Shown: piece after piece, positions 388 to 64,000 of the stretch
Layout: each line of letters begins with the position of its first letter
How positions within the stretch are numbered: position 1 is the stretch's first letter
DNA from: Hormiphora californensis
Taxonomy: Eukaryota > Animalia > Ctenophora
Assembly: GCA_020137815.1 (NCBI GenBank)
Contig: CM035357.1
Location: 3,410,001-3,474,000 of the forward strand
Reading direction: 5' to 3'
Length of the DNA stretch: 64,000 nt
Position numbers and translations under genes: made by a program
The notes under the pieces: generated by a model
Told to the model about the DNA's origin: nothing
Seen by the model: only the letters and a program-made list of their open reading frames with translations
The model's database searches: none

Positions 388-660
388 AAAAAGTTCAGTA
401 TTTACACAGAGTTTACACAGTCTTTACTCAGTCGTTACACCCAGAGCGGTGCGTGCTGCGCACAGTGGCTTTTTCCAAGAAATTAATGGATTGTGTGCTG
501 CACAATTGACAAAATTGAGCGCCACGGCGAAAAAAGTTTCCGAAAACGCTGAAAATCGAGTGCGAAAGACGCAGTCGTTACACCCAGAGCGGCGCGGGCG
601 CTCTGGGTGTAACGACTGAGTAAAGACTGTGTAAACTTTGTGTAAATACTGAACTTTTTT
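388..660. mobile_element. Inverted-repeat (MITE-like) element
   Basis: aaaaagttcagtatttacacagagtttacacagtctttactcagtcgttacacccagagcg (388-449) is mirrored by its reverse complement at ~599-660. Confidence 0.65.
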
Positions 661-972
661 AGGGATCCCTAAACTGGGGAATTTTTCGGATATTTTTTTT
701 TTGAAAATTTGAAATTTGAGTTTTTTGTCGCGAAAAGACCCAAAACTTTGACGCGCGCGGCGCGGCGGGTAATTGCGGGTAATACGATGCGTATTGGCGC
801 CATACGTCAAGTCGCAAATGTCGTCATAGCGATTACGTCATCGGGTGGGGCGATCGCTTCGAAACTTTGGGGCTGACAAAATGAAACGCATATGTGGTCG
901 TGTGCAAAAGGAATAAGCGATTTGAGAACCTTGAATTTTGTATGCGTACACCCTAATATACTGTAATTGAAG

Positions 973-6900: not shown

Positions 6901-8573
6901 CGGGTGGCCAAATTTAATCAGGTTTCGGGTCGGCTGACGTAAAAACTCCGCGTTTTGGTCGAGGTAACCGTAAAACCATAAACCATAAAACCATAGATAT
7001 TTTTAGAGTGAAAGTTTTGAAGCCCCCTGAAGTAGTAGAGAGGTGTTCTATGGCTCGTTGGAAAGGTCTCGAGGTCCCGCGACGTATAGGGGGTGTGGCG
7101 ATGGCCATACCCAAACCTATAAGGGGTAGGACGCGAAAAACAGTCAAAATAAGGGGTATACAGAACTCGGCAATTAGAAGGAGTAGAAAGGTGTTCTAGG
7201 GTGCGTTCGAAAGCTCTCGAGGTGCTGAAGTAATTGGAATGTAAAGTCGGATTTTTTGAAACTGTCACCCCCCTGGGTATTTTCAAATTTCGTAAATGAC
7301 CATAAATCCGGTTCCTGACGAGATAGAGACTTGAAATTTGGAGGTTACGAAGATCTTGCTAAGTTCTTCCGAACCTCCAAATTTCAAGTCTCTATCTCAT
7401 CAGGAACCGGAGATATGGCAAATTTTGTTATTTCAGGGGGGTGACAGTTTCAAAAAATCCGACTTTAATTGGAAGTAATTACATGTAATTAAAATGTAAT
7501 TACATGTAATTAAAGGGTAATTACATGTAATTAAAAGGTCTAAATGACCCCAAATGACAATTCAGACATATTTTGACATATTTGGAGGCCCTGAGACCAG
7601 CGGGTGGCAAAATTTAATCCGGTTTCGGGTCGGCTGACGTAAAAACTCCGCGTTTTGGTCGAGGTAACCATAAACCATAAACCATAGATATTTTTAGAGT
7701 GAAAGTTTTGAAGCCCCCTGAAGTAGTAGAGAGGTGTTCTATGGCTCGTTGGAAAGGTCTCGAGGTCCCGCGACGTATAGGGGGTGTGGCGATGGGTGTG
7801 CCCAAACCTATAAGGGGTAGGACGCGAAAAACAGTCAAAATAAGGGGTATGCTGAACTCGGCAATTAGAAGGAGTAGAAAGGTGTTCTAGGGTGCGTTCG
7901 AAAGCTCTCGAGGTGCTGAATTAATTGGAATGTAATTGGAAGTAATTACATGTAATTAAAATGTAATTACATGTAATTAAAGGGTAATTACATGTAATTA
8001 AAAGGTCTAAATGACCCCAAATGACAATTCCGACATATTTGGAGGCCCTGAGACCAGCAAGTGGCAAAATTTAATCAGGTTTCGGGTCGGCTGACGTAAA
8101 AACTCCGCGTTTTGGTCGAGATACCAGATAAAAAAAACCATAAAACCATAGATATTTTTAGAGTGAAAGTTTTGAAGCCCCCTGAAGTCGTAGAGAGGTT
8201 TTCTATGGCTCGTTGGAAAGGTCTAGAGGTCCCGCGACGTATAGGGGGTGCGGCGATGACCGTACCCAAACCCATAAGGGGTAGGACGCGAAAAACAGTC
8301 AAAATAAGGGGTATGCAGATCTCGGCAATTAGAAGGAGTAGAAAGGTGTTCTAGGTAGCGTTCGAAAGCTCTCGAGGTGCTGAAGTAATTGGAATGTAAT
8401 TGGAAGTAATTACATGTAATTAAAGGGTAATTACATGTAATTAAAAGGTCTGCATGATCCCAAATGATAATTTAAACATATTTTGACGTATTTGGAGGCC
8501 CTGAGACCAGCGGATGGCCAAATTTAATCCGGTTTCGGGTCGGCTGACGTAAAAACTTCGCGTTTTGGTCGAG
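973..8573. repeat. Tandem array of a ~470 bp unit (15 full units plus partial units)
   Basis: Units start aaccatagatatttttagagtg near 1123, 1603, 2078, 2552, 3213, 3678, 4146, 4620, 5087, 5554, 6017, 6514, 6991, 7681 and 8145 and end ttttggtcgag. Each carries internal AATTACATGTAATT palindromes and a variable (AACCATA)n linker. Confidence 0.95.
7244..7465. mobile_element. Tc1/mariner-type MITE inserted into one satellite unit
   Basis: TIR aagtcggattttttgaaactgtcacccccctg with a TA duplication. The empty site ggaatgTAattgg is present in the other units. Confidence 0.9.
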
Positions 8574-9260
8574 TTTACCAATCCCTGTAAATATTTTCCG
8601 GTTACTTACAAGCCGATTCTTGCGAAATGTTTGGGGTTCATTAATTTCCCAATATTCACGAGCTATTCATCTACTGAATCTCTGAAGACTAGTCAGCTAG
8701 CCTTCAGAGATAGTCGAATAATTATATTATGTCAAGATAAATACGAGGATGCACCAACAATTTTAATTCTAGCATAAACTCGCCATATATGACCAAAAAA
8801 TCAGAAAATAATCGGACGGTTTATCATTTATGTCACATCTGAGCGCGATTATTGTCTTGCACGCCGTTCATCCTCCCTTTAACCGTGACCTATCAAAGTA
8901 TAGGGCAGTACATCAGTCGTTTATAGCTTCTTACTTCAGAATAATATGCGAGGCAGCTGTACAGAATAGCAGTGGTATCGGGTGATTTTACATACAATAG
9001 TTACAGTGGCTATTATGTATAAACGACATTTACTTTGACACTCTGATAGGTCACGGTAAAGTGGGAGAAATGGATGATCAAAGGCGTGCAACTCGGGGTT
9101 GAACAAAACAAATACTCCATGTCACCATTAATAATATTAGTCCAGTTAATGACAATCATGAAATCAGCATAACACAACACATCAGAATCAATAATATCAA
9201 CATTATTGACACACTCAGGATCATTTGTAAAACAAAGATCTCCCGCCAGTTTAATGTTTG

Positions 9261-10810
9261 TTAAGTTATTGAATTCCTTCTCCGTAAAGTTTGCACATTT
9301 TCATTCGTAGTAATGATACCAAAATTAGTTTCTTGGATCTCGCCTCTGGTTGGCATCATAGCAATGCAACTGGAACATTTCATATGCATCTTAATACAAT
9401 TCGATGTGTTATCGGCAACTTTACATTCCTCCTCTTTCTTGTTCACGGGTACTCCATCACCGACAATGTTTTGCCGGTGACAATTATCTACACTTATAAT
9501 ATCATTTGCTGGTTCGGGTAAGACTGGTACACCATGAACCAATGCACAGATTGATGACCAAGAATTCATAGCAGCTGCCATTTTTTCCATGGCAGGTCTA
9601 AGCACATCAAACACTTTAGTTAGTATATCACTGTACAAAAGTGGGTTTAGTACAGAGTTAATTGGTAGGATGTTGAGGGAGAAGACCTGGTACCACGGTG
9701 ACATATCCACCACCTCGGCTGTATGGAGGGCACAACAAATCAAGAAGGGTAGCCAACAACATAAGTCCGTTACACACAACCAAGTAACTTTGCGACCAAG
9801 TTTATTATTGTTGCGCCGGTCTGCCCCAGGAACTGCCGCCTTAATCGACAAGACCACAATTAAGATATGGCACACTGCAACGGTCATAAAGCAGAGAAAG
9901 TGAAGGCTGATGTAGAACCAGACAAAGACAACCTGGGGATCATTGGGGAGGACAAAAAACTTAAACGTACAAACTGGATCGTTACCGTAGAATGACACCT
10001 TTTTACCTGAAACAGTCCCATAATCCGCGGAAAACATTTCCGCGACCATTCCTTGAATTGTATTCCAGGAAATGCCAGCCTTCCTTCGAGAACGTTCAGA
10101 GTACCTTACCCCGTAGTAGCCATAGACAATCTGCAAAAATCGTGCCTTGTCCACCGTACCAAGGAAAAGTGATATATTCTTAGGAAATACAAGTCCATTG
10201 ACAAACCAATCTTCCAAAGAATCTAGTAGAGGCACTAATGCAAATGCGAGAGCAATAAGCAAAATAAACGCTAGGCATAGAATAACTTTAAGCCGAAGCT
10301 CCTCCGAAACATCGCCAGACTGTCTGTAACGAAGAGCTCGTCTTGTTCCATAAAGCCGGTAAATGCTTATACCCGCCATGGCTAAGGAGGAAACTGTCGC
10401 TCCGACCGTGTTTAGTACACCTATGATTTTACAAGTTCTCCCACTAATCCATTCTAATTGCTTAACACAGAAATCAGTGCTTTTAAAGATATGCAGGGTT
10501 GTTAAGGTGAGGAGATAGCAGGGAGTTAAGAGATCTCCAAAGGAGATTGCAAGTACGAACACATGATTCACAAAGGCTCCACTTTTATCCGGAAGTTTCT
10601 GGATAAATGTTTTCACGAAGGCTGTTAATCTCAACGGCAAACACAGTTGGCGTAACTCAGAAAGGGGACAATTTCAGTGCTCTCCAATTGCGTCGCGGCG
10701 CGGGGGGGGGGTCACTCTCTCTCTCTCTCTCCCCCTTTTCGATGGTTTCTGAACACTCACAGACACTGTGTGGTGATCTCAAATTTCTCTCTCTCTCTCT
10801 CTCTCTCTCC

Positions 10811-10871
<61 letters not shown>

Positions 10872-10901
10872 TCAATCTTTCCCTAATTGTGAGGGATGAA
10901 G

Positions 10902-10957
<56 letters not shown>

Positions 10958-11548
10958 CATACATTACTGGGCTTCCTGATAGGGGCCCTCCGCCCTGATT
11001 AAAGTAATTTATTGTCACAAGCCGTGATATCCTTATTCCTTCAAGGAATATATAAAATGGGCCTGAAATATGCAAGGAATTTCCTTGCATATTTCAGGCC
11101 CATTTTATATATAATCAATAAACCCTGTTTATATGTAGCGGGTCGCCCGCTAGGGTGATTCGCTACATCATATACTGCCCGACCTGCGAAGTAGGGAGGG
11201 TGGTATATGGTATAAGACCCGACCAAAGGGAGGGGTTTGTACTTTCTATAAGCAAGGATTTATTGATTATAAGTTTAAGCGGAAAAAAAGCTTGCTTTTT
11301 ATTATAGCAGGCGGGGTTTGTCAGACAGATTTTCACCCGCTGGAGTGCCCTTAAAGAGTCGCACTGCACTGGTGCTATATTGTCGAAATACTAAAATTAA
11401 AAAAAGACACATTTACATACGGTACTTGAATATAAAAGCTTCTCAGCCATAAACCTGACTACTCGGCCACTTGCCGGGTGTCAGTTGATGATATTCCATG
11501 TACTTATATCTGATTTGAAATGGTTGCTCTCTCTCCGTCTGTCTCCCT

Positions 11549-11618
<70 letters not shown>

Positions 11619-14600
11619 ATCTCTCTCTATCTATCTATCTATCTATCTCTCTGATTGAGAGAGTGAGAGCGGGATTGAGAGAGGGAGATTATCTATGGTT
11701 TTGTATGTCTTTGGGGATGTTATACGCCCAAAGACATACACTAATGGGGACCCCTACCCGGAAGCCGGATAATATGGTCTCGGGTGTCCTAAACCTACAG
11801 TTTTTGGACACCGGAGACTTACTATCCGGCTTCCTGATTAAAGTGGTTTATTGTCCCAAGCCGTGAATTCGGCAAAACATTTCGTTGTTTCACGACATTA
11901 TTGTACACTGTGTGTTCCTTTGCTGGGGTGCTCCGTGCTTGAGTTTCCCCTCTCTCTATCTCTTACCGCGAACCGTAGAACAGAATGAGCTTGTACGAGT
12001 TATAGATCTCTACAGCTGGAGAGTGGAGACGTGACACACGTCGACATCTCTCTCTCTCTTCCTTTCCCTCTCTCTATCTCTCTCTCTGGACCCTGGACTA
12101 TCTCTCCGTCACTCTCTTACTCTTTCAACATTTTAGCGAAGTCTCCGCATCAGCAAAAGATTCCATCTGGTAGTTTGGATGCCAAAAACACACTTCCCGG
12201 GGTGCTAGAGCCCCGAAAACCCCAGGAATCTTGAATGAGGGTAGAGAATAGTCTAGGTATGTAGTTTCATGACATAATCTTGTCAGCTTTTTTCTGGGTG
12301 AAGCCCAACGCTTGTAAAGATACAAAATGATTAATGAACACCCTGTACATGTACATACATTAACATGCTACATATTATCAACAACAACTACATTGATGGG
12401 TGAGAAGCGTTAAGGGCCAAAACCAAAATCCCCTTAGATGTATGGAATTTTTTATTTCTCCATTTTTTTCGACAATAACACCAGTGCAGCAGTGCGATAA
12501 TATCGAAGAGCAGCCAGCAAGGACGCTGCTCAGTTTCAAAAAAATATCTCAATCTTCCTTTCTCTCTGATATGTGGTCCCAAGGGAATACTGATCCCCTC
12601 TAACAAGGTTTTACTAGTAAAAGTATGTCTCTCACTTTTCTCCCCTTTGAGAAAAGAGAGAGCGATACATTAGTTTAGTACTCCCTGACTTGACGTAGGG
12701 GGCGAAAAGGAGAGATCTGTACAGTGCTGAACTGATATTTATGGTAAAGTACGCCAACTGTGTTTGCCGTCTACTTTAGTCCTATAGAAATTCCAAGGAC
12801 CCCCATAATAGATGCGATCAAGATCGTAACATAACTTTTAACTACTGTCCTACTGCAGCTGTCATTGCATTCGTCTGAAAAGTCCTTGCAGTCAGCTTTT
12901 CCATCGCATTTCTGGCTCAGAGGTAAAAACGAGGAGTTATCAGCACACTGGAAATTGTTGGCACACCCAGCATCCTCATCAGACCTGTCCCCACAGTCAT
13001 CAACCAGGTCACACACCCTCTCAAATAGAATACACTTCCGGTTTTTACACACGAACACGTTGTTATGAAACGCAGTTTTTTGTCGGAAAACTGATGTCAC
13101 AACACTTAACTCCGTGTTAAGTGAGTAAACTGCAATTGGGAGATTGTGACAGGAATTATGTAGTACCGGTCTATTCAAAGGGCATGCAGCATTTATACAT
13201 AGTCCAGTACAGCTGTGAAGGACATACGCCTCACCATAGAGGTATCTACAATCTTGCTTCCGGTCCAATGTGACAAGGGCTGTTGTTAGGTTCTTACCGA
13301 AGAATTGGTGAAATGGGTAGTTGAATTTTCGGAGTGAACACTGCTCCTTCATATGAAGGAGCACCGAGGAAAGACCTTTGTTGCATACATTTCCAACCAG
13401 ATATTCATTTCCAAATAGTTGAGCGGACGAAGGTCGGGCTAGAGCTTTATTTACATTTACCCTTCTTCTCGCGCTCTGACAAACCCCCTCGTCGCACGTA
13501 TGGGCCGAAGAACATACGATGGAAGAGTCTAGGAATTCTGAATGGTTGCCATAGCACAAGAACACGTTAGAACACGGTGCCGTGTCCACCTTAATCCTCA
13601 GAGTGGTGCCATTGCCGCACTTTTCCCAATTATCTTTCTCGTCGATGCCACTTTCACAATCTAAAACTCCATCTTGGATCCAATCCACCGGAACTCGAGA
13701 CAATTTCCCAAACCGTCTCTGACAAGTGTGAGTGGTAACTTTACCAGATCCACACCATATTTGACCCTCATCCATGCCACCTGCACAATCCTCCGTACCA
13801 TCACAAAGCTTATGCTTATGAATAAAGCAATACCGACCAACCCTGACACACTTCAACTCGATCCCATCATCACACAACTGTGGAGATTTATTGCTATCAC
13901 AGATCACATAGATGGAAATTGTGCTGCGATAACCGTTCACCAGACAGCTACCTCCTATCTTGGCCGGATCTGTGCAGTTAGTTTGGTCCATTCCAGATTG
14001 TACGCAGTAGGTAGACCTTTGAGGACTGAAAATATTTTCATTTCGACCATTGAATGTTAAGAAACATCGTGAACCGTTATACAAGGCAAATCTGCTACTG
14101 ATATGGCCGATACCATAAGATAATGCGTCACAAAGAAGTGCATCCTGATCCCAAGGAGGGGCTGTTCCTTCTTTTGGCATTCCTTGGAACGGCATAAAGA
14201 CCAGATCGTTAGAAACAGTTCCGTAGACGATTCCCCCGCCGCAATCCCGCTCCTCGACACACGTCATTTTGGAGCTTTGTGTTTCGCCAATCCAGATATC
14301 GTCACATATCCCATCGCAAACACCTCCCAATTTCAATGTGACCTCGACAATACTACCATTTTGTAGAGTGATATGATAAAACATAGTTCCTCCAGTTTTA
14401 TCGCTACACGCCTGGACGTCTTTCTGGACAAAGTTATCTTCAAAATTGTCGAAACAGACAACTCCACAAACCGGTGGCTGATCAAACATTTCAAGGAGAC
14501 TATGGTCAAAGAATTTGCCCATATATAATTGTCCACATGCCTGATAGATAGCGTCATCATTTGGGCAGAGTACAGAATAATGAGTTGTGGATATACGTTT

Positions 14601-15349
14601 TATACCGTTGTAGACTCCCTGTTTTTTATAGGTCACATTGGCCCAGTGCGAAACGTTGTTCAAGGTGTTATCAATGTGAAATCCGGTCGAAAAAAGTGCT
14701 ATAATTTTTTTCTATGAGGGTGATATTTTTAGGGTGATATTTTCCAATGCGCCACTATCACTGAGAGTTGTATATCACTGAATCATAATACTGGTCGGTG
14801 TTAGCCCTTGAAAAATTTCGCAGCGCCGGCAAGGGCCCCCAGGAGTATCTTAAATGCACATATGCATTCCGTGCATTCCAGCAGTTTTAAAGACTATCCG
14901 AGCAAGAAAAACTACTTTTGACATTATATCTACTATCTAGGAGTACATATAATGGTCGGTGTTAGCACCTGAAAAAATTTAGCAGCGCTGGCAAGCGCCA
15001 CTAGCGTATAATGATGATGATGGGGGTGAAATAAGTCATAAATTTAAGCATAAAAGTGATATCAATTAGATTGATAAATTGGCCAACATTTCGCACCGGG
15101 CACATTGGGAGCGGTGACACATTGAAAAATACTTTCACGCATCGAGAAGTACCGCTCCGTATTACAGATGTGGGCTAGAAACCCGTAATCAATGGCGATA
15201 GGACAAAGCTTCCCGTCTTCATAAGTATCAGATTGCGAAGAATTTACTCCAGATGAGTCAGTCATGGGTCCACTGTTGTCTGGAAAAGGGTCGACTGTTG
15301 CAAGAAGCACATTCAGTGTAAAGAACATTTTCCAGGTTCCTGTAGACAT
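9261..15349 (-). CDS. LDLa-repeat-containing rhodopsin-class GPCR (GRL101-related, no LRRs seen); coding segments ~15349-15062, ~14700-12775 and 10629-9261
   Basis: The first segment has a signal-peptide-like start. The 630-aa ORF has LDLa motifs (CDGTEDCAGGMDE, CDLVDDCGDRSDE, CDGKADCKDFSDEC) and the start of TM1. The 459-aa ORF has TM2-7 with GDLL, CWLPF and NPLLY. The two large ORFs are in the same frame. The first junction is uncertain. Confidence 0.85.
10630..12774 (-). mobile_element. 2.1 kb TIR element interrupting GPCR TM1; candidate spliced introner-like insertion
   Basis: Perfect 21-bp TIR ACGGCAAACACAGTTGGCGTA at 10634-10654 and 12750-12770. Minus-strand GT at 12774 and AG at 10630 lie 4 nt outside the TIRs. 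The interior has CT/GA tracts, a hairpin (~11050-11110) and a MITE fragment (~12125-12345). Confidence 0.75.
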
Positions 15350-19704: not shown

Positions 19705-22700
19705 ATGGCTAAGATAAGTGGACCTGTTTCACAATATGAGAGAGCACGGAGAGAGAAGATCAAAAGGAATAAAGCCATCGTAAGTGCTCAATGAATTTAC
19801 ACCCATTACCCTGGTTTACCAAACTGTGTCCTGGTATAGTCGGACCCCCATTTAACGGAACTCCAATTCATAGGGAGGGTAAACTTTCTCCCGAGCATCC
19901 CGGTACAAATTGGGGTCCGACTGTATCTCAAAATATATTTTACACACCTCCAAGCCTAGCAACTAGTTTTTACTCCCAATCTAATGTTTTATACCCAATA
20001 ATAATGTATTTCAGTTAGCAAGTGTCTTCCCAGACCTGGAATCAGCAAGAGCGAATGTGTGTCCATCTCTACCAATCGAACCTCCTCGCAAGAAGAAAAA
20101 GGCAAGGGTGAGTCTCGTAGACAGAACACGATTTTTTGTCTATCTGGCAGCGCCGTGCACCCGATCTGGGCGCTCTGTCCTCAGCTTGAGAATCTAGACG
20201 GGGGGGGGGGGGCAGATTATTCTAATTTCTTGTTCGACCAGCCTTCTCACTGTGTGCCACTTTTCAGAGTACGTTTGAAAGGAAGATGGTGAAAGAGACT
20301 CCGTACCAAGCCAAGGTGGTGAGAAGGAACCCCTCCCGACACGCTCGGAACACCATCGATCATGTTCCTGATGGTGAGTTAGTCTTGGTATCGAAGACAC
20401 CTCACACTCTGCACGCTGGCAAGGGGTAACCTCGTAACCAAGAGTTAGTCTACCCTATCTCTTATGCGTATGAGTATTGGCCTGGCCCTATTTGATTATC
20501 ATTTCGTTCAAATAAGGAAACAGCGGTCAGAGCATTGGCCTAATAGTGCTGCTTGCAGTCAAAATTTGGTTACGAAGTCACCCCTATTATTGCATATAGG
20601 GGTGACAATACCGCCTACCTAAAAATGACAATTTACGGGACCTTCTCATAAAAAGTTATCGAAAACTTGTCTAAAACCTATCTAAAACGTATGGTACTAG
20701 TTTGTATAGTAACCAGGACCTGAATTCTACAGAAAGTAACGACCGGTAGCGATTACACCACATGTTTAACAACAGAGGTGTGTCGCATAACTCCTTATAT
20801 GGGCATAAAATTCCAATCTTGTGGAATTTTTTCTGACTCGACTATAGCTTAGTTATCAATGAATCCACCTCTAATACCTTTGGAATGGCATTTTGCACAT
20901 TTCTGAAGGTTTTTGTAGCCAAATTCCAGCATCTTCATAGTTTTCCAAAAACAAAAAGAGTGTTAATGGCCAAAATTTCGAAAAATTCCGGTATGTAATG
21001 GTAGCTCAGACAATTTCCTCGGTATGTTCAAAAAATTAGAACTTTCTGTTTTGTAGTTTGGACACAGGAATTTTTTTCCCGCCGTACAAGCGATATTATT
21101 ACCCCTCCGTGAGCTAGCGCAGAGGGGGAATTTCATTACCAAAGTCAAAATACGGTAACGCAAAATACAGTAAGGAGACGCGCACGGTGCATAACGCGCA
21201 GCAAAAAGTTCATGTGTCAGCACGTACTAGCGCCCTGATTGGTCACGGTTGCGCGTCGTCTTACTGTATCTTCGTTTTCCATTACCGTTTTCCCACTACA
21301 AGCGACCGTGTTACAACTTTCTCTCTCTCTCCATCTTTCTTTGTTTATATCTTTCTCGGGCGTTATTTTATTGTTTGCATTAATTATAATTCACCCATGT
21401 GCTGAATAATGAATCCCCAATGATTGTATAGGTGTCGAGGTAGCACTACGGGAGAGTGGAGACCACGATGAGTTTTTTGAGACACCCATTTGTCTCTCAA
21501 CATCTACGGGCCGCTATCATGTAAGATTATATTATCATATCAGATCAGATAATCGTACAGTACCATAAATGTGAGATTGTATCCCCTCTTTTGGCTTGAA
21601 GACCCCTTACTCAACAACTTTTTGCTGGACGCACAATTTAGCGATTTGAATTTACAATTACCATGTAAATTTACAACTACTGTGTATTTTTTCAGAACAG
21701 ACCAGTGAGAGAGGTAGAAGTTGAATTCAAAACTGAGGAGGATCGAGAGAAGTGGAATGAGGATGTATCTAAACCAGCGGAGCATTTCACAGACAAAATC
21801 TATAGTGCTAATGTAGGTTTAATTCATTCCAAATACTATTGTTCCAATACTAATTCACTTTTATCAATCAGCCCATTAGTACATAATTGACACCCATTAA
21901 CCCTAATTGACACTAATTAACTCTTTACATAACCACACACAGGGTACGACATGTCACCAGTGCCGACAAAAGACACTGGACGGTAAAACCCGGTGTAAGA
22001 ATATCAACTGCCCGGGTCAGAGGGGGCAGTTTTGTAACGTTTGTCTGAAGAATAGATACGGAGAAAAGGTGCTGGATGCCCTACAGGATAAGGTATGTTA
22101 CATGTAGCGGGATGTTCCACAAACATACTGTTTATATCGCCCCATCTTTATCCCCATAGTTCTGTAACTCACTGCCCACCTGATCTGGTGCCGCCCGTCA
22201 ATGTTTACAACCTCCCCCGATCCCCGTCTGGCGTCTTGTCCAGTGTCCTCTCCTGTACCCCCCGGCCCCCCAACTTTTCCTATCCTGTAACCCCTCTCCC
22301 TCTACAGAGATGGCTGTGTCCACCATGTCGTGGTATTTGCAACTGCTCCGTCTGCAACTCCCGTCGAGGAAGACCCCCAACTGGTGTGCTTCTACCCATC
22401 GCAATGGAAAAGGGGTTTTCTTGTGTCAAGGATTATTTGGAAAGGTGAGATTCTGAAAAAGAATGTATGGGGGGGGCGTCACCTTTTTATTGCCCATAAT
22501 CCCAGCGAATTTTGGTTTTGCCCATATGGGCAAAATGGGCAAAAGTGGGCAAATTGAAATGTTCAGTGTTATATAATATGTCGTTTTTTCAAGTCTATAC
22601 CTTGATTTCATCTCTTAAAAACTCGGTCAGAATTAAAATGGTCTTAATTTGGTGTCTAATTAGAAGTCAAATTCTTTTTAGTGGTCAAATCCTAAATTTA

Positions 22701-23528
22701 GGATTTTTTAGGTTTTTTTGGCTTTAATGGGTTTTAGAAACATCCTAGAACAAAATAAATACAAGCATCTTCCTCAGCGCGAAATTCTGCTTCAATTATA
22801 GTGGCTATAAACCTATCTATGATGTAAGGTGCAGGAGTTATTTTTTGCCCATTTTTGCCCATTTTGCCCAAAGTCCCACGATTCCCCCCCCCCCCCCCCC
22901 CCCCCCCGATGTATGGGAAGTTTATTTGATGCAAATATCTGTAACATATAATATGTTGCTCAGAAGTGTTCATAGACTGTTCTGTTCAAGCCTTATCTCA
23001 ATTCTTTTTGTTGAGTTACTCAAAAAATTATTTGCAGTGTCGAACAGAAGAAAGGAAAGAAACGAAAGGCTGGAGGAGAACTTGTTGTTGAGTTTGATGA
23101 TGAGAACAAGGAAAATATCGATCCGAGGGAGCATGTAAAACAGGTACATATTTTATTCTCTGGATCAGCTGTGTAGGGCTGACGGCACCGTCCGTGGTGA
23201 TTGGTGGAGACATGTGAAGAGAGTGACCCCTGTGGTGTACTAACATGGTCCCGAGTTTTATCAGGCATAGACGACTCGAGATTTTACAAAGTTTATTCGT
23301 AAGATTAAGAAAATTGTGAATTTGTAATCGTTTTTATTGTATCGTCAGGGAAATTTAAACATTCCATCCTCTCAGGAACTACAGACTGAAGACATCAAAG
23401 TTGAACCAACGAGGGAAATAAAGGAGGAAATGTTAGAAGAGGACTGTTTCGAGAATATAGATCCTGAACTTATTGAACAAGCATTGATTGCAGTCAAACA
23501 GGAATTGAGTGAAAAGGGGATTGAGTGA
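19705..23528 (+). CDS. CDCA7: CDCA7-like zf-4CXXC_R1 zinc-finger protein, 9 coding exons
   Basis: GT-AG exons join in frame: [25 protein letters not shown] ... [50 protein letters not shown] / [16 protein letters not shown]...PTGVL...[10 protein letters not shown]. This matches the CDCA7 finger, including the CRQK, GQFC and NRYGE motifs. Confidence 0.9.
20543..21312. mobile_element. Insertion in intron 3 of CDCA7 copy 1, absent from the same intron of copy 2
   Basis: Copy 2 reads gagcattggccta-acaactttctctc with no insert. Its first ~540 bp recur at ~23571-24103. Confidence 0.7.
22472..22908. mobile_element. MULE-like MITE with a 9-bp TSD in a CDCA7 copy-1 intron
   Basis: G-run and C-run ends, inverted gggcaaaa/ttttgccc repeats, flanking atgtatggg at 22463-22471 and 22909-22917. 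Absent from copy 2. Confidence 0.7.
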
Positions 23529-24104: not shown

Positions 24105-27100
24105 CCATCTCTACCACTCGAACCTCCTCGTAAGAAGAAAAAGGCAAGGGTGAGTCTCGTAGACAGAACACGATTTTTTGTCTATCTGGCAGCGCCGTGC
24201 ACCCGATCTGGGCGCTCTGTCCTCAACTTGAGAATCTAGACGGGGGGGGGGACAGATTATTGTATAATTCTTGTTCGACCAGCCTTCTCACTGTGTGCCA
24301 CTTTTCAGAGTACGTTTGAAAGGAAGATTGTGAAAGAGACCCCGTACCAAGCCAAGGTGGTGAGAAGGAACCCCTCCCGACACGCTCGGAACACCATCGA
24401 TCATGTACCCGATGGTGAGTGAGCCTACCATATCTCTTATTGGGCATATTAGTATTGGCCTGGCCCTATTTGATTATCATTTCGTTCGAATAAGGAAACA
24501 GCGGTCAGAGCATTGGCCTAACAACTTTCTCTCCCCATCTTTCTTTGTTTATATCTTTCTCGGGCGTTATTTTATTGTTTGAATTTATTATAATTCACCC
24601 ACGTGTGCTGAATAATGAACCCCCAATGATTGTATAGGTGTCGAGGTAGCGTTACGGGAGAGTGGAGACCACGATGAGTTTTTTGAGACCCCCATTTGTC
24701 TCTCAACATCTACGGGCCGCTATCATGTAAGATCATATCATAATATCAGATCAGATAATCGTACAGTACCGATGATTATGTGAGATTGTATCCCCTCTTT
24801 TTGCTTGAAGACCCCTTACTCAACAACTTTTTGCTGGACGCAAAATTTAGCGATTTGAATTTACAATTACCATGTAAATTTACAACTACTGTGTATTTTT
24901 TTCAGAACAGACCAGTGAGAGAGGTAGAAGTTGAATTCAAAACTGAGGAGGATCGAGAGAAGTGGAATGAAGATGTATCTAAACCAGCGGAGCATTTTAC
25001 AGACAAAATCTACAGTGCTAATGTAGGTTTAATTCATTCTAAATATTTTTGTTCCACTTTTATTAATTAGTAATACATAATTGACACCCATTAACCCCGC
25101 CTAATCGACACTAATTAACTCTTTACATTACCACACAGGGTACAACATGTCACCAGTGCCGACAAAAGACACTGGACGGTAAAACCCGGTGTAAGAACAT
25201 CAACTGCCCGGGACAGAGGGGGCAGTTTTGTAACGTTTGTCTGAAGAATAGATACGGAGAAAAGGTGCTGGATGCCCTACAGGATAAGGTATGTAGCGGG
25301 ATGTTCCACAAACATACTATTTATATCCACCCACAAACGACTTACGACATCTAATATCTCCCATAGTTCTGTAACTCACTACCCACCTGATCTAAGTGCA
25401 CTGTCGTTTGGAATCAAAACGGCCAGGCAAGAAAAATCCCCTTCACCCAACTTGTTCCCCACAACTTTTCCTACCCTGTAACCTCCTCTCCCTCCACAGA
25501 GATGGCTGTGTCCACCATGTCGGGGTATTTGCAACTGCTCCCTCTGTAACCCCTCTCCCTCTACAGAGATGGCTGTGTCCACCGTGTCGGGGTATTTGCA
25601 ACTGCTCCGTCTGTAACCCCTCTCCCTCTACAGAGATGGCTGTGTCCACCGTGTCGGGGTATTTGCAACTGCTCCGTCTGTAACCCCTCTCCCTCCACAG
25701 AGATGGCTGTGTCCACCGTGTCGGGGTATTTGCAACTGCTCCGTCTGTAACCCCTCTCCCTCTACAGAGATGGCTGTGTCCACCGTGTCGGGGTATTTGC
25801 AACTGCTCCGTCTGTAACCTCCTCTCCCTCCACAGAGATGGCTGTGTCCACCGTGTCGGGGTATTTGCAACTGCTCCGTCTGTAACCTCCTCTCTCCCTC
25901 TACAGAGATGGCTGTGTCCACCGTGTCGGGGTATTTGCAACTGCTCCGTCTGTAACCCCTCTCCCTCCACAGAGATGGCTGTGTCCACCGTGTCGGGGTA
26001 TTTGCAACTGCTCCGTCTGTAACCTCTCTCTCCCTCCACAGAGATGGCTGTGTCCACCGTGTCGGGGTATTTGCAACTGCTCCCTCTGTAACCCCTCTCC
26101 CTCTACAGAGATGGCTGTGTCCACCATGTCGGGGTATTTGCAACTGCTCCGTCTGTAACCCCTCTCCCTCCACAGAGATGGCTGTGTCCACCGTGTCGGG
26201 GTATTTGCAACTGCTCCGTCTGTAACCCCTCTCCCTCTACAGAGATGGCTGTGTCCACCATGTCGGGGTATTTGCAACTGCTCCGTCTGTAACCCCTCTC
26301 TCCCTCTACAGAGATGGCTGTGTCCGCCGTGTCGGGGTATTTGCAACTGCTCCGTCTGTAACCCCTCTCTCCCTCTACAGAGATGGCTGTGTCCGCCGTG
26401 TCGGGGTATTTGCAACTGCTCCGTCTGTAACCTCCTCTCTCCCTCTACAGAGATGGCTGTGTCCACCGTGTCGGGGTATTTGCAACTGCTCCGTCTGTAA
26501 CCCCTCTCTCCCTCTACAGAGATGGCTGTGTCCACCGTGTCGGGGTATTTGCAACTGCTCCGTCTGTAACCCCTCTCCCTCTAGAGAGATGGTTGTGTCC
26601 ACCGTGTCGGGGTATTTGCAACTGCTCCGTCTGCAACCCCTCTCCCTCTACAGAGATGGCTGTGTCCACCGTGTCGGGGTATTTGCAACTGCTCCGTCTG
26701 TAACCCCTCTCTCCCTCTACAGAGATGGCTGTGTCCGCCGTGTCGGGGTATTTGCAACTGCTCCGTCTGTAACCTCCTCTCTCCCTCTACAGAGATGGCT
26801 GTGTCCACCGTGTCGGGGTATTTGCAACTGCTCCGTCTGTAACCCCTCTCTCCCTCTACAGAGATGGCTGTGTCCACCGTGTCGGGGTATTTGCAACTGC
26901 TCCGTCTGTAACCCCTCTCCCTCTAGAGAGATGGTTGTGTCCACCGTGTCGGGGTATTTGCAACTGCTCCGTCTGTAACCCCTCTCCCTCTACAGAGATG
27001 GCTGTGTCCACCATGTCGGGGTATTTGCAACTGCTCCGTCTGTAACCCCTCTCCCTCTACAGAGATGGCTGTGTCCACCGTGTCGGGGTATTTGCAACTG

Positions 27101-28168
27101 CTCCGTCTGTAACCTCCTCTCTCCCTCCACAGAGATGGCTGTGTCCACCGTGTCGGGGTATTTGCAACTGCTCCGTCTGTAACCCCTCTCCCTCTACAGA
27201 GATGGCTGTGTCCACCGTGTCGGGGTATTTGCAACTGCTCCGTCTGTAACCTCTCTCCCTCCACAGAGATGGCTGTGTCCACCGTGTCGGGGTATTTGCA
27301 ACTGCTCCGTCTGTAACCCCTCTCCCTCTACAGAGATGGCTGTGTCCACCGTGTCGGGGTATTTGTAACTGCTCCGTCTGTAACCTCTCTCCCTCCACAG
27401 AGATGGCTGTGTCCACCGTGTCGGGGTATTTGCAACTGCTCCGTCTGTAACTCCCGCCGAGGAAGACCCCCAACTGGTGTGCTTCTACCCATCGCAATGG
27501 AAAAGGGGTTTTCTTGTGTCAAGGATTATTTGGAAAGGTGAGATTCTAAAAAAGGACGCGGGAAGTTTATTTGATGCAACATATATGTTGCTCAGAAGTG
27601 TTCATAGACTGTTCTGTTCAAGCCTTATCTCAATTCTTTTTGTTGAGTTACTCAAAAAATTATTTGCAGTGTCGAACAGAAGAAAGGAAAGAAACGAAGG
27701 GCTGGAGGAGAACTTGTTGTTGAATTTGATGATGAGAACAAAGAAAATATCGATCCGAGGGGAAATGTAAAACAGGTACATATTTTATTCTCTGGATCAG
27801 CTGTGTAGGGCTGACGGCACCGTCCGTGGTGGAGACAGTGTGAAGAGAGTGACCCCTGGCCCTGTGGTGAACTCACGTGGTCCCGAGTTTTATCACTATC
27901 AGGCATAGACGACTCGAGATTTTACAAAGTTTATTTGTAAGATTAAGAAAATTGTGAATTTGTAATCGTTTTTATTATATCGTGACCTGGAAATTTAAAC
28001 ATTCCATCCTCCCAGGAACTACAGACTGAGGGCATCAAAGTTGAACCACCGAGGGAGATAAAGGAGGAAATGTTAGAAGAGGACTGTTTCGAGAATATAG
28101 ATCCTGCACTAATTGAACAAGCATTGATTGCAGTCAAACAGGAATTGAGTGAAAAGGGAATTGAGTAA
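24105..28168 (+). pseudogene. CDCA7: Second, 5'-truncated CDCA7-like copy (tandem duplicate or uncollapsed haplotype)
   Basis: Starts in the middle of exon 2 (ccatctctaccactcgaacc). Exons 3-9 are nearly identical to copy 1, with TAA at 28166-28168. No exon 1 is present. Confidence 0.75.
25476..27451 (+). repeat. 29 copies of a 67-70 bp minisatellite made of a splice acceptor plus the first 51 nt of CDCA7 exon 7
   Basis: Unit ccctctccctctacag|AGATGGCTGTGTCCACCGTGTCGGGGTATTTGCAACTGCTCCGTCTGTAAC. Copy 1 has a single instance. Confidence 0.95.
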
Positions 28169-28223
28169 AAACAATGATGATTGAATTGGACTCTATAATT
28201 TTTAATTAATTTATTCTACCAGT

Positions 28224-28332
28224 CAGGAACCGACCGACACAAGTAAACAACCAATCAGAACTCGTTATTTAGGTCACGTGACTGGTTATCAGCCAATCAG
28301 GGACCAGTATTTCCTGATTCGGTCGGTTCCTG
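28224..28332. mobile_element. 109-bp hAT-like MITE
   Basis: TIR caggaaccgaccg/cggtcggttcctg with an 8-bp TSD ctaccagt on both sides. Confidence 0.9.
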
Positions 28333-28350
28333 CTACCAGTTATGCTCATA

Positions 28351-28743
28351 CAGTCGGACCCCGATTTACCGGGATCCTCGGGGGAAGCCATTTTGCCCGG
28401 TAAATCGGGGTGCCCGGCGAAGCCGGGTGGGTAATCAAAAAGCCCTTACTTGAGGCGCACCCAATGGGTGCGCTAGTTCTGTAAAATTTTGCAAAAAAAA
28501 GTTATGAAATTTTTCAAAGGTATACCAGCCACGTTCGAATCGTGTTTCGAATCGGGGCAACTTATCACGTGTCCTGCCGCTAATTAGACGGTTCGAAACG
28601 AACCGATACGTGATCCCCATTAGACCTAGCGAATTGCAAATGCAAGTTTACCAAGCGGCCAAACTTCGAAAATTTTCCAAAAAAAATCGGGGGAAAGAAA
28701 TCCTCCCGGTAAATCGGGGTTCCGGTAAATCGGGGTCCGACTG
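28351..28743. mobile_element. TA-flanked MITE (CAGTCGGACCCCGATTTACCGG family)
   Basis: TIRs with TA flanks. Relatives at 19583-19644, 19838-19923, ~33836-33918 and 35846-38440. Confidence 0.85.
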
Positions 28744-29032
28744 TACTATTATTATTTGCAGGTTCATTTTTACACTGGCAGCAGCATTTTTATCCATTTT
28801 TAACCTTTTGCATATCAATATATCATTATATTATTTCCTATTAAAGTTATTTTGTTACAACTTCATAGATCCGACTATTTTATTTGTTCCTGGAACGGGC
28901 ATTGGATTTGAGGTGGTCATTAAAAAGGATTACCATGACATGAGGGGTGACCCAAGAATCTCTGGAAAGATCTATTTATGTCCGTGGTGGTCCATTGTAT
29001 TGGTACCAATTATACCATTGCTACATTGGAGG

Positions 29033-30518
29033 GGCAATTTCGGATTAGCCGCAAACGTTGTCTGGACCTGTTTGGCGGCGGCGCCGTCAGACCAGATCAG
29101 AGCCAGATCGAGTCGACGCCGCCAGACAGGTCTGGACGGGCTTCAACGTTCAGACGCCGTCTGACCAATCTTGATCTTAAACGCGTTTTTCCCACAACCG
29201 AGACGGGATTGAACTTCAAGCCCGTCTCAAGTTCACTTCAAATTGAAGCTGACTTGAGACGAGCAACACTATACTGATACACGGTGTTCATTTTGGATCT
29301 TTACAAGCGTTGGGCTTCACCCAGAAGAAAGTTGACAAAATTAGCTTATGAAACTTCATACTTGGACTATTCTATACCCTCATTCAAGGTTCCTGGTGTT
29401 TTCGGAGCTCTAGCATCCCGGGAAGTGTGTTTTCGGTATCAAAACTACCAGAAGGAATTTTTTTGCTTGTGCTGAGACTTTGCTAAAATGTTTTTTGGGT
29501 ATTTTCTATCTCAAACTCAAAGTTTTATGATGATTTCATGTGTTTTTCGGTCTCAGAATTTCGAAAAAAGTGGCTGGAAAGACTCTAAAATGTCAATTTT
29601 TGAGCCATTTTAGAGTCTTTTCAGCCACTTTTTTCGAAATTCTGAGACCGAAAAACACATCCAATCATCATAAAACTTTGGGTTTGACATAGAAAATACC
29701 CAAAAAACATTTTAGCATAGTCTTAGCACCAGCAAAAATTCCTTCTGGTATGTAGTTTTGATGCCAAAAACACACTTCCTGGGGTGCTAGAGCTCCGAAA
29801 ACACCAGGAACCTTGAATGAGGGTATAGAATAGTCCAAGTATGAAGTTTCATAAGCTAAGTTAGCTGCTAACTTTGCCAACTTTTTTCTGGGTGAAGCCC
29901 AACGCGTTGCAACGCTTGTAAAGATCCAAAATGAACACCCTGTACAAGTGCAGGCGTGCGTTTATACGAGTTTTGACGAAATCGGACGGAACTTCTGAAA
30001 CCAAACACTGTTTGAAAGTGAAACACGTCTCAAGAATCAAAATGTGTCGCAAATTAGAATCTCCGTCTCAAAAACACACATTCAGGCGTTCTTGAGACGA
30101 AATTTCCAATTGGCGACACGTGTTCCGTCTGATTTCGTCCAGCTCAATGCTCATCAGTCTGATTTCGACTAACTACGTCTAAACCTTGGGCACGTCGCGC
30201 CCTCTTTTTTTCGCGAACCCCTCACACAGAGGCTTCGCAGCCAAGTCTAAACCGTAAAAAACGCACGTCTACTTGTAGCCCGTCTCAACCTGTCGTCCTG
30301 TCTGGCAGTGGCGCCGCCGACCCCATCTGAACGCACGACGAGTTGAGACATGTCTCAACTCGTCTTATTCAAGCCCGTCCTGTCTGGCGGCGCCAGACCA
30401 CAATTTGATTCTAAAATTTGAGCACGCGACAGTGTGCTCAGATGGGGTCGCGGCGCCAGACAGAGCCCGTCTTGGGGGAAACCGTCTAGACAATGTTTGC
30501 GGTTAATCCGAAATTGCC
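29033..30518. mobile_element. PIF/Harbinger-like non-autonomous element containing a nested MITE
   Basis: TIR ggcaatttcggatta(g/a)ccgcaaac(g/a)ttgtct(g/a)gac at both ends. Confidence 0.7.
29280..29942. mobile_element. Tc1/mariner-type palindromic MITE
   Basis: ta-cacggtgttcattttggatctttacaagcg ... cgcttgtaaagatccaaaatgaacaccctg-ta; almost entirely self-complementary. Confidence 0.85.
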
Positions 30519-30823
30519 TTATTTTTAACCGACCGGTAGGAAACTGAATAACAATTGGCTGAGATTTGTTAAAATCAATAAACGATTACACATTGTTTTT
30601 ACATATGGAGGATACGTAAAGTTAAAGATAAAATTTTCCAACTCAAAACGTAAACGGGAAGTGAAGTATTGATACCATGACCAAATAGCCACCAAAACTT
30701 TTGGCAAAAGGACTATTTTATTTTCTCCATAATATTTAACAACAAAATATAATAATAGTTTCATAAAAAATAAGAAAAAGAGTGTCATTTAAAGAGTTCG
30801 CAAACTCGAATTAAGTTAAGTGT

Positions 30824-60403
<29,580 letters not shown>

Positions 60404-60464
60404 ATCGCTGCAACCTAGAGTGAAATGATTTATGAAGGAGCAGTTGTTGCTATGTGTAACTAGG

Positions 60465-61213
60465 CACGGCGTGCCTGGTGAAATTTTAACACGACCTAGC
60501 ATGCGACGGGAAACCACCACTTGTACGTGAAAATAAGCAAGAAAAGTTGTCATTTTGACCGTTTTGCCTACTTAAATTTTCTACAAACCAACGATCTGTT
60601 ATTGGATTGGTATGAAATCTTGGATTTTAGTCGAAAATTGTCCCATAAACAACTTAAGCATGGTCCCGATTGACCATTTCAATCAGAAGTTTGTCGAAAA
60701 TTCCAAAATCCAAAAAACAAGAAAATCAAGTTACGGTTCTCCTAGTTGGCAGATTTCAACAATTTGCCCAAATCTAACCATAAATCGGATATACACGAAA
60801 ACTTGGTTCTTGGTAGAAAAATGACCATTTTAACGATTGGCACAAGTTTCAAATTCCTATCTCAACGTTTTCAATGGTTTAGGGGCCAAAAACCTCCAAA
60901 AAATGGTAAAAAATCAACTTTTGACCATTTTACAGTCATTTTAGAGATTCGACTTCAACGGCAATCGATTCTACGTGCAAAAATAGGTGGGGGTGACATA
61001 TTTCGTGTGCTAAGTCATTATGGATTTTTCGGGACCACGTTTAATATAGCCAATTTTGACCCAAATCAAATAAAAGTAAAAAAAAAGATTTTAGGGAATG
61101 GAATGTTTTTTCCCGCACCGTAGCGCCATTCTGTAGACCCTCAGCTACCACGTACAAGTGGTGGTTTCCCGTCGCATGCTAGGTCGTGTTAAAATTTCAC
61201 CAGGCACGCCGTG
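60465..61213. mobile_element. Chapaev-like (CMC) MITE with a 4-bp TSD
   Basis: ~65-bp TIR starting CACGGCGTGCCTGG, with TAGG duplicated at 60461-60464 and 61214-61217. Confidence 0.85.
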
Positions 61214-61354
61214 TAGGAGTGAGTTAGTAGGAGTGAGTTACTTAAATAATCAACCTGTATAGGATTCATGTTGATTATAGGATAAAGGGAAGCGGGGGCG
61301 ATGGGGATAAAGAGAAAGAGATCAAGAGAAAGATAGAGAGAAAGAAATAGAGAG

Positions 61355-61477
<123 letters not shown>

Positions 61478-61993
61478 CTTGAGGTAAAGCTTGGCTGCAG
61501 CTGTAGTGTCTACACTCATAACTCTTGCTTACATACCCTTTATCTTCTCTCAAATGTATACTTTCATATCAGGACTTCTGTTGTGTTTTCTGAGGGTTTG
61601 AAGCACGAGTGGATATTGTGTGAAGCAGTGTGAATTTGATCTATACAGGATTATTTTGGGACTTTCATCCATTTAAGTCAGTGATTGTCATCAGTTTTTT
61701 CCCCACATTATGTGAGCCGTTTTAATTCAGTTTTTCCAAGTTGGTCTTCTAAGAGAGTGTTTTTTTCTAACTTTGTATCCCGCTCTGATTGCCGTCAGTG
61801 GTAGTAGTTATATTTTGATCTACTGCCCCTGGACGGTATGGGCGGAATATAAGTACGTGTATTATTATTATTATTATTATTGTCTTTCGTCCTTTTTAGT
61901 CAGGGGTTTCAGCCGTTGAATTGGGCTGCTTTGTAGTATGTTACACCCCTATTATATATAATATGTAACAGGTTGTAACAGCAATATGTAACA

Positions 61994-63851
61994 ATGAAAC
62001 AGAAGTACCAGACCCTAGAGGAAAACACCCCAATTCTCCCTGGACCCGGGACATGCTCCCTGACCCCTGAAGCCATCAGGACCGCAGTGGCTGTCACCAT
62101 GGGAGGGTTCCTATTTGGTTATGATATTGGGGTAATGAGTGGAGCTCTGGTCAAGTTGTCTGAGGACACAGCCGGGGACTCAGCCTGGGGTCTAGATGAT
62201 AACCCTTTTAGGTAGGTAGCATGGGGTCTAGATGATAACCCTTTTAGGTAGATAGCATGGGGTCTAGATGATAACCCTTTTAGGTAGGTAGCATGTGGTC
62301 TAGATGATAACCCTTTTAGGTAGGTAGCATGGGGTCTAGATGATAACCCTTTTAGGTAGGTAGCATGGGGTCTAGATGATAACCCTTTTAGGTAGGTAGC
62401 ATGGGGTCTAGATGATAACCCTTTTAGGTAGGTAGCATGGGGTCTAGATGATAACCCTTTTAGGTAGCTGATGTAGTTGATTGTCTAAAACTAAACTAAT
62501 GTCTCCTTTTTATTACGGACTAGCGCACCCATTGGGTGCGCCTCAAGTAAGGGCTTTTTGATAACCCACCCGGCTTCGCCGGGTGGTTCTTTTCACCCCT
62601 TTCAACGTCAATAACACGGTTGCCATGGCAACTGAATTAGTAACTATGGGGACTGGCATGTTAAAAGTCATTCGAAAATATTAACCAACTTCCACTGGAA
62701 GTTCCAAAAGTGTGAATGACAGCTTTACAGCTTTGGGCACATAAAGTGTTTTATGAAGGAGCACTGTCGCGTAGAAACGCACTGAACGAACGGCCACTTC
62801 GACGACGTTCATCTCCAAATTCCATTGTTTTCCATACTCATTCGTCCGATTTACAGTCTCCTAACTAGCTATAAGTTGCAACTAACTACTAAGTTGCAAC
62901 TCGACATTTTCAGACAGGAAGTTGTAGTGTCTGCCACGATTATATTCGCTGCCATTGGATCCCTGCTCAGTGCACCGCTGAACAGGTCGTTAGGACGGAA
63001 ACCAGTCTTGTTGGGAGGGGCCCTGTTGTTTTCACTGTGCGGGGGTGTTATGGGTACCAGTTGGAACTGGTGGGTGCTAACATGCGGGAGAGCAATGGCA
63101 GGAATTGCAATAGGTCTCCTGTCGATGACAGCCCCACTTCTCATATCTGAACAGGTACTTAGTAACCATGGCAACCATACAGGTAACCATGGTAACACAC
63201 TTCTCATATCTGAAGACTGAACAGGTACTTAGTAACCATGGTATATCTGAACAGGTACTTTAGATTAGTGTAACCATGGTGGTAACCATGGTAACCATGG
63301 TAACCACTAACCATGGTAACATCTATATCTCCCTCCCACTTATAGATGGCTACAGAGTGGCGTGGTCCTGTCAACGTTGCAAATCAACTGATGATCACTG
63401 TAGGCATCCTGGTAGCTAGCATTGTAGCGGGAGGATTCTCTACAACTCCAGATGGGTAATATGTGCGATAAAGGAAAAAAGGCAAGGTCTACTCAGACCA
63501 AATATTTAGGAATGAAGTCTAAGTTCGAAAGTCTCGTCAAACGGATATAGATGTGTGTATCATACTGTTTCATATGGTAACCATGGTAACTCAGGTAACC
63601 ACAAGCCATGGTAACCATGGTAACCCAACTCTCTCTATTCCCTAGTTGGAGGTACATGTTGGGTTTATCTAGTGTCCCTGCTATTCTCATGGTGATGCTC
63701 GTGTGGTCCATCTCGGAGAGTGTTAGGTGGCTGGCACACAGTGGCAAACTGGGGGAGGCCAAGGCAGTGCTTCGGAAACTCAGGGATGACGATGTGGAGC
63801 TGGAGTGGGAGATGATCTTGGATGATATTGGGAACTGTAGTCAGGACGCAG
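61994..63851 (+). CDS. SLC2A13: MFS sugar porter, proton/myo-inositol cotransporter-like (5' part; gene continues past the window)
   Basis: Exons 61994-62211, ~62914-63154, ~63347-63455 and ~63646-63851 encode GGFLFGYDIGVMSGAL, QEVVVSATI, LGRKPVLL, GRAMAGIAIG, WRYMLGLSSVPA and ESVRWL. Confidence 0.85.
62186..62466 (+). repeat. Eight copies of a 36-bp exon-end/donor unit
   Basis: TGGGGTCTAGATGATAACCCTTTTAG|gtaggtagca repeated eight times. Confidence 0.95.
62519..62820 (-). mobile_element. Dispersed repeat fragment with a CCCGGCGAAGCCGGG hairpin (Helentron-like)
   Basis: Reverse complement of ~37870-38166; the same hairpin occurs at ~28413. Confidence 0.65.
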
Positions 63852-64000
63852 GTTCGTGATATTGGGAACTGTAGTCAGGACGCAGGTTCGTGATATTGGG
63901 AACTGTAGTCAGGACGCAGGTTTGTGATATTGGGAACTGTAGTCAGGACGCAGGTTCGTGATATTGGAAACTGTAGTCAGGACGCAGGTTCGTGATATTG
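63824..64000 (+). repeat. At least five copies of a 34-bp exon-end/donor unit, running off the window
   Basis: GATATTGGGAACTGTAGTCAGGACGCAG|gttcgt repeated. Confidence 0.95.

Follow-up and report, generated by a model that had tools for sequence, protein, structure and literature searches.

Genes and boundary repeats in the window

The DNA analysed here is a stretch of 64,000 nucleotides from the ctenophore Hormiphora californensis, to which we refer as the window. It begins with telomere repeats (positions 3-50) and a 470-bp satellite. Four gene copies were modelled in it, namely two CDCA7-like genes arranged in tandem, a vinculin gene and the first exons of a sugar transporter, which together provide 105 exon-intron junctions (Table 1). 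A query with a vinculin exon returned two relatives, the named one of which is a protein of Mnemiopsis leidyi (74%). The alignment with Mnemiopsis vinculin runs exon for exon over all 35 exons and, together with the zf-4CXXC_R1 domain found for CDCA7-like (E 4e-16), confirms two of the gene names proposed in the initial annotation. The third name, SLC2A13, was correct as far as a sugar transporter is concerned; judged from the Sugar_tr match, the exact orthology is better put as SLC2A13-like. The vinculin model contains a single 1-nt frameshift near position 43092, which is a probable indel error of the assembly. The CDCA7-like paralogues differ by 24 synonymous and 8 non-synonymous codons over 301 codons, and the truncated copy, which carries the largest array of all, may not be expressed. 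A search of the window against Rfam returned nothing at gathering score.

The initial annotation had listed 15 repeats as tandem duplications of splice sites that pervade three unrelated genes. All 15 repeats are present, approximately at the coordinates listed, and 14 of them span a modelled junction. Together with copies of the vinculin exon 33 donor this gives 15 boundary repeats with a modelled junction. The word pervasive was nevertheless too strong, since only 15 of the 105 junctions bear copies. They are found at 11 of 68 junctions in vinculin, 3 of 7 in the transporter, 1 of 14 in the truncated and 0 of 16 in the complete CDCA7-like copy, a difference between genes (CDCA7 copies taken together, 1/30) that is not significant (P 0.06). 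Tandem, too, describes only part of the set: six repeats are head-to-tail arrays with units of 20-67 nt, while the other nine consist of spaced copies separated by unlike filler.

Table 1. Positions of the modelled genes and of the repeats described in the text.
Feature	Position	Strand	Details
CDCA7-like gene, complete	19705..23528	+	9 exons
CDCA7-like tandem paralogue, 5'-truncated	24105..28168	+	
CDCA7 acceptor array, head-to-tail	25476..27451	+	29 x 67 nt (23 intron + 44 exon bases)
Vinculin gene	30824..60414	-	35 modelled exons; 34 introns, all GT-AG
Vinculin exon 33 donor (31513), spaced copies	31449..31533	-	Absent from the initial annotation
34-nt repeat, vinculin	32348..32579 (initially 32345-32435)	-	2.9 x 34 nt, ends at AG
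Vinculin exon 30 acceptor (40828)	40820..41051	-	Four upstream copies
Vinculin exon 29 donor (41237)	41105..41305	-	68-nt exon-end copy 130 nt downstream (3 synonymous differences, 3 intron bases in common); two short copies
Vinculin exon 19 donor copy	50950..51032	-	32 exon + 6 intron bases; 2 synonymous differences
Vinculin exon 16 acceptor copy	53919..54065	-	110 nt upstream; 3 intron + 34 exon bases; 1 synonymous difference; intron flank unrelated
Vinculin exon 15 acceptor	54424..54588	-	Full decoy at -35; extra pyrimidine-tract copies
Vinculin exon 13 acceptor array	55088..55761	-	60/91/151-nt units; 7 decoys bearing exon sequence, one degenerate
Vinculin exon 11 acceptor x3	56295..56407	-	
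Vinculin exon 9 donor x3, spaced	56845..57024	-	
Vinculin exon 4 acceptor x2	59322..59383	-	3 intron + 16 exon bases
Vinculin exon 3 donor x2	59621..59668	-	14 exon + 5 intron bases
Sugar transporter (SLC2A13-like), first 4 exons	61994..64000	+	Sugar_tr, E 5e-15
Transporter donor array	62182..62467	+	8 x 36 nt (30 exon + 6 intron bases)
Transporter exon 2 donor, two spaced copies	63135..63260	+	
Transporter donor array	63823..64000	+	At least 5 x 34 nt (29 exon + 5 intron bases); passes the window end; donor predicted at 63852, as the next exon lies beyond the window

In the CDCA7 array the last acceptor (27401) is the one that keeps the reading frame. The complete paralogue has one acceptor only, at 22308, and thus represents the unduplicated state of the junction that is amplified in the neighbouring copy. 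The ends of the array unit correspond to a 7-nt near-match between intron and exon that is seen in this single-copy paralogue.

The one listed repeat that could not be confirmed as a vinculin acceptor is the 34-nt repeat at 32348. Its copies share just 0-1 base downstream of the AG, Mnemiopsis vinculin passes from exon 32 to exon 33 without an insert at this place, and the in-frame, stop-free donors behind the repeat are weak ones only. It is possibly a 135-nt optional exon with weak signals.

Excess of repeats at splice junctions

Local direct repeats were detected by a search that was blind to the annotation (offset 10-400, score of at least 15, low-complexity sequence removed), and the 28 events within the four gene spans were counted. 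As null model we used random placement on the collapsed sequence, from which wholly exonic placements were excluded. About a dozen unvalidated junctions of a nested gene on the plus strand were kept out of the null; no events lie on these. Within this single subtelomeric window, which was picked for the pattern, lies 25-64 kb from the telomere and allows no genome-wide inference, 15 of the 28 events spanned a junction compared to 2.8 expected, i.e. a 5.4-fold excess (P 3e-9).

The excess ranged from 3.5- to 7.4-fold across 16 combinations of eight settings and two choices of unit length. When only short introns and intron ends were considered, 15 of 17 events were located on junctions (3.6 expected), and between exons 1 and 18 of vinculin all seven were (1.1 expected). 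It held for each class of repeat, with 6 of 10 head-to-tail events (1.05 expected) and 9 of 18 spaced events (2.24 expected). To allow for the conservation of one of the copies, junction copies were given retention odds of 2, 3 and 4, for which P values of 8e-6, 4e-4 and 4e-3 were obtained. Within the window, the enrichment at junctions also survives the control for overall intronic repeat density that the initial annotation had asked for, and neither of the two findings it had named as refuting has occurred.

With an unchanged threshold, each run on block-shuffled sequence yielded 1-2 segments, such that 1-2 of the 28 events may be due to chance. A fixed 16-mer probe (up to 2 mismatches) detected only 10 of the 105 junctions because few intron bases are common to the spaced copies. 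Part of the junction excess may itself be a detection effect, as copies derived from an unrelated intron allele would be invisible to a repeat finder.

Variation between haplotypes

To compare the window with other haplotypes we used contigs from 4 of 17 public runs over two stretches; ten runs from marine or viral metagenomes with small shares (X7-X16) were left out. One run, X1, may be the source sample of the assembly. A contig of X1 with a length of 478 nt bridges both arrays of vinculin intron 29, and another of 370 nt bridges the exon 4 copy, both with 0 differences to the window. The copies at exons 3 and 4 are also found gap-free in a contig from another study (X5), and S2, a sample from another study, shares them. 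At the sites bridged, the arrays are hence present in short-read contigs.

Copy number varied among the X1 haplotypes and S2 at the acceptors of exons 13, 11 and 30 and at the donor of exon 29. For exon 30 three of the four upstream copies (148 nt) are missing from the second X1 haplotype and from S2; in X1 this haplotype is represented by another contig, equal in depth, that has the exon joined directly to the copy at -149. The arrangements at the exon 29 donor differ in other haplotypes. The exon 13 array is missing from S2, and the S2 contigs contain shorter forms of the exon 11 acceptor, interpreted as having two copies and a single copy. At the exon 15 acceptor the likeness between the S2 contigs and the window ends after 3 nt of intron. 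Since S2 may be a distinct population or a cryptic species, its intron divergence could overstate that between alleles. A metagenome scan for related vinculin loci provided 102 stretches with 0 confirmed, and a candidate locus from a second scan was rejected as bacterial.

Repeats of this kind had been proposed to contribute to intron gain and intron growth. Of these, growth is borne out by 4082 of 32633 intronic bases (12.5%) that lie inside boundary-repeat events. Gain is contradicted at the acceptors of exons 13, 11 and 30, where the haplotypes without the array retain a shorter intron at the same place; introns have thus grown there rather than been gained.

Sequence and strength of the decoy sites

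Of the copies, 64 retain the AG or GT and are termed decoys in the following. With a small matrix built from 45 introns of the window, 51 of the 64 scored better than the real site or no more than 1 bit away from it. For 63 of all 64, use of the decoy would shift the frame or lead to a stop, in agreement with the initial observation that the copy attached to the exon body is the one that keeps the frame.

Comparing the longest decoy of each of the 15 events with its exon, we found 13 synonymous and 2 non-synonymous differences. The ratio was 9:3 with the nearest decoy and 14:4 with the farthest; an initial count with partly hand-set lengths had given 14:3. Under a null of neutral decay in which the real exon may also drift silently and transitions are weighted by up to 4, the P values for the bias lay between 1.5e-4 and 0.035, based on 12-18 differences in all, three of which are at exon position +2 of phase-1 acceptors. 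Allelic SNPs are similar in this respect: those in exons that distinguish other haplotypes from the window were 26 synonymous to 1 non-synonymous (27 exonic differences among those listed). In 8 of the 15 events the unit or decoy has just 3-6 intron bases in common with the real junction, and the exon part of the copies is about 96% identical to the real exon. This combination is unlike the uniform decay of an old self-copy.

Other haplotypes depart from the window sequence 3, 4, 5, 6, 10, 11, 13, 14, 21 and 26 nt into introns, distances that were read by eye from the joints listed for the two stretches (15 of 44 for one of them). The letters beyond these joints are unrelated. In the array at exon 30, the copy at -149 is what the second X1 haplotype has as its exon-joined acceptor, and the nearer copies match the S2 acceptor. 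From its sequence the array looks like a mosaic of the acceptors of two haplotypes. An allele of a real exon with the exact silent variants of a decoy was not found among the listed differences (40 of 314, one stretch); the allele listed at exon 11 is not identical to the decoy.

Exchange between diverged alleles as a proposed origin of the repeats

The repeats are so-called mirages, copies of exon edges within existing introns that are real and in part polymorphic. As their origin we favour an exchange, by recombination or in the repair of breaks, between alleles that have diverged strongly and share little beyond the exon and the splice signals, a reading of the sequence to which we assign a probability of about one half. 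An exchange would start in the homology provided by the exon and would exhaust this homology at the intron edge. If a short match then allowed it to be resolved in the wrong register, the exon edge of one allele would be placed beside that of another. Once two copies are present, they could mispair with the exon of any homologue, such that an array would grow more easily than repeats deep in the intron. Selection would retain those arrangements whose exon-joined copy has intact signals, and the decoys would either go unused, as has been shown for the donors of human F7 and the mirages of amphioxus, or give rise to products that are degraded. The order of events could be either way: the copy may stem directly from the other allele, or a self-copy may form first and the real exon be exchanged between alleles afterwards.

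High heterozygosity and many intronic indels are described for Hormiphora in the accessible text of PMC8527503. Several points speak against allele exchange. The synonymous bias is based on few differences, and no real-exon allele with a decoy's silent variants was found among the listed differences. Slippage or sister exchange would explain the six head-to-tail arrays with their near-identical intron parts equally well, and for the CDCA7 unit a simple short match at the two ends is seen.

Ordinary local duplication by slippage, short-match end joining or templated insertion would need no preference for junctions. The pattern would then be the result of filtering by selection and by detectability, which lasts longer when one copy is conserved exon, and allele exchange would be secondary at most. 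In line with the prediction of a selective filter, no wholly exonic event was found at any setting. Moreover, 13 of the 28 events (35 of 51 at the loosest threshold) are located off the junctions, the CDCA7 unit is flanked by the 7-nt near-match, and the window is subtelomeric and was selected for the pattern. However, the excess persists with exonic placements out of the null and with retention odds of 2 to 4, and local duplication alone predicts neither differences that are nearly all synonymous nor a likeness that ends at the splice signal. We consider it a rather unlikely explanation.

The initial annotation had suggested DNA damage or repair coupled to splicing. In such a process, which may also be coupled to transcription, breaks or stalls would arise at sites of spliceosome engagement, and their repair would duplicate the local sequence. 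The junction enrichment is real, and several unit ends are found at donor positions +3 to +6 or near a motif that we take to be branch-point-like. It leaves the allele-like look of the decoys unexplained, however, and the boundaries in question are the same at which haplotype likeness ends and at which selection needs intact signals. In addition, the largest array resides in the 5'-truncated CDCA7-like copy and none in the complete paralogue. The idea thus gained no support; the synonymous bias of the decoys favours exchange between alleles instead, and we regard splicing-coupled damage as improbable.

We give even less credence to decoys that are functional alternative sites, serving regulatory unproductive splicing or micro-exons, although selection on them would also leave silent-only differences, their strength is mostly close to that of the real sites and their exon parts are well kept. 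With frame shifts or stops in 63 of 64 cases they are beyond the reach of selection at the protein level, and arrays are absent or altered in other haplotypes. Amphioxus mirages (PMC3087553, PMC3902484) and the pseudo-sites of human F7 (PMC1557585) are moreover reported as harmless to splicing in the accessible text of these papers. An assembly artefact in which two haplotypes were collapsed or concatenated at exon edges would likewise yield allele-like copies, and the window contains at least one probable indel error (43092) while the contig comparison leaves out the arrays at 25476, 62182 and 63823 and the sites 31513, 50950 and 63155, yet it is very improbable, being already refuted at all bridged sites by the X1 contigs without differences over the intron-29 arrays and the exon 4 copy and by the gap-free copies of exons 3 and 4 in X5.

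If exchange between alleles is the origin, population diversity itself would shape intron length and would ring exons with decoy splice sites, which here concerns the 12.5% of intronic bases given above. A more tentative extension, possible though in our view doubtful, is that exons of hyper-diverse genomes act as islands of homology, where an exchange that runs off an island copies the junction of one allele next to that of another. Mirages would then be a general, heterozygosity-driven class of mutations that grow and reshuffle introns from their ends, which would account for their occurrence in lancelets as well as in comb jellies. The silent-site signature offers a cheap genome-wide test of the allele-exchange origin in any species with phased assemblies.

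Comparison with known systems

Boundary repeats are an already known and named kind of sequence, and the Hormiphora cluster is a real and dense set of mirages in a new phylum. In amphioxus, mirages were described for Adh3, the globins BflGb6 and BflGb9, troponin C and PGBD5 (PMC3087553, PMC3902484). According to the accessible text of these papers they span either exon boundary, vary between haplotypes and leave splicing undisturbed, while somatic length instability is reported for the Adh3 mirage. Their origin was called unclear (PMC3087553). The Hormiphora repeats resemble them in being found at either boundary, in having units of tens of bases, in keeping the AG or GT intact in most copies, in a copy number that varies between haplotypes and in the highly heterozygous marine invertebrate host. 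The six head-to-tail arrays fall within the minisatellite-like range of mirage units (about 10-160 bp), and the nine spaced repeats are a looser form of the arrangement. Differences, as far as that text goes, are the other phylum, the 15 sites within 40 kb and the spaced copies with few shared intron bases in 9 of the 15 cases. What is new here is a measured junction excess and an allele-like signature that makes the origin testable, consisting of the silent-site bias and of a likeness that, as between haplotypes, often ends 3-6 bases into the intron.

A similar layout is known from intron 7 of human F7, where the first unit of a 37-bp minisatellite spans the donor and, of several identical donors, only the first is used (PMC1557585). 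The 36-nt and 34-nt donor arrays of the transporter correspond to it, with an exon-joined first copy and identical pseudo-sites behind it. In the part of that report available, F7 is a single locus with donors only, for which splicing was tested. The model of Rogers, as cited in PMC3087553 and PMC2812944, likewise starts from a duplicated sequence that contains splice signals. There, however, the duplicate makes a new intron, while in Hormiphora copies accumulate in introns that are found without them elsewhere. Human repeats at exon-intron boundaries were surveyed in PMC2812944. In the literature searched, which leaves most subscription papers and supplements outside, we found no report from a ctenophore, no genome-wide enrichment test and no allele-exchange origin for mirages.

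Boundary arrays are a trap for gene prediction as well as for assembly. They also lend themselves to natural experiments on how splice sites are chosen in an early-branching animal, with up to 28 equal acceptors in front of the real one. The strict exon definition suggested in the initial annotation would let such decoys be passed over. In the one RNA-like run (X17), spliced contigs connect exons 3-4, 14-15 and 15-16, with only one start per exon; they are 85-90% alike to the window and derive perhaps from a decoy-free lineage.

The CDCA7 duplicate and the vinculin reading frame

In the tandem duplicate of the CDCA7-like gene (24105-28168), exon 1 is missing and exon 2 is incomplete, but the frame nonetheless stays open. 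Its changes comprise 24 synonymous and 8 non-synonymous substitutions. An open frame with mostly synonymous changes would fit a segment that originates from a diverged allele.

The vinculin frame of 1378 codons is unbroken except in exon 25, where one extra base (43085-43100) disrupts it. This base is probably an assembly indel, while a vinculin null allele is a possible alternative.

Candidate exons and nested genes

A stretch in the vinculin tail is a candidate optional exon (see table). It has no counterpart in the Mnemiopsis vinculin protein and may resemble the metavinculin insert. Inclusion of an open stretch in intron 7 would likewise keep the frame.

The gene nested antisense in vinculin starts with an apparent signal peptide; a Pfam search with two of its exons gave no match, nor did an Rfam search with the repeat unit found in its intron. 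The intron-23 open frames, for which a Pfam search likewise returned no match, could represent an element or a nested gene in parallel orientation.

Additional features of the window, with strand where assigned
Feature	Position	Strand	Remark
Candidate optional exon, vinculin tail	32214-32348	-	135 nt, in-frame; weak splice signals
Open stretch, vinculin intron 7	57541-57600	-	~60 nt, AG...GT-bounded; by eye
Multi-exon antisense gene, vinculin intron 31	34543-39900	+	
Repeat unit, intron of nested antisense gene	36560-37900		~420 nt, three copies
Long open frames, vinculin intron 23	43892-44359, 44930-45580	-	host gene strand
Short repeats at intron 3' ends	42422-42486, 48056-48111, 58380-58416, 63182-63625		stop short of junction
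Intron-poor stretches (two)	about 9200-10640, 12800-15340	-	

Short repeats and the chromosome end

With regard to the short repeats at intron 3' ends, small duplications may generally cluster close to acceptors.

The regions 3-8580 and 9150-15340 hold telomere repeats, a subtelomeric satellite of 470 bp and the two intron-poor stretches. The intron-poor stretches look like receptor-type coding sequence.
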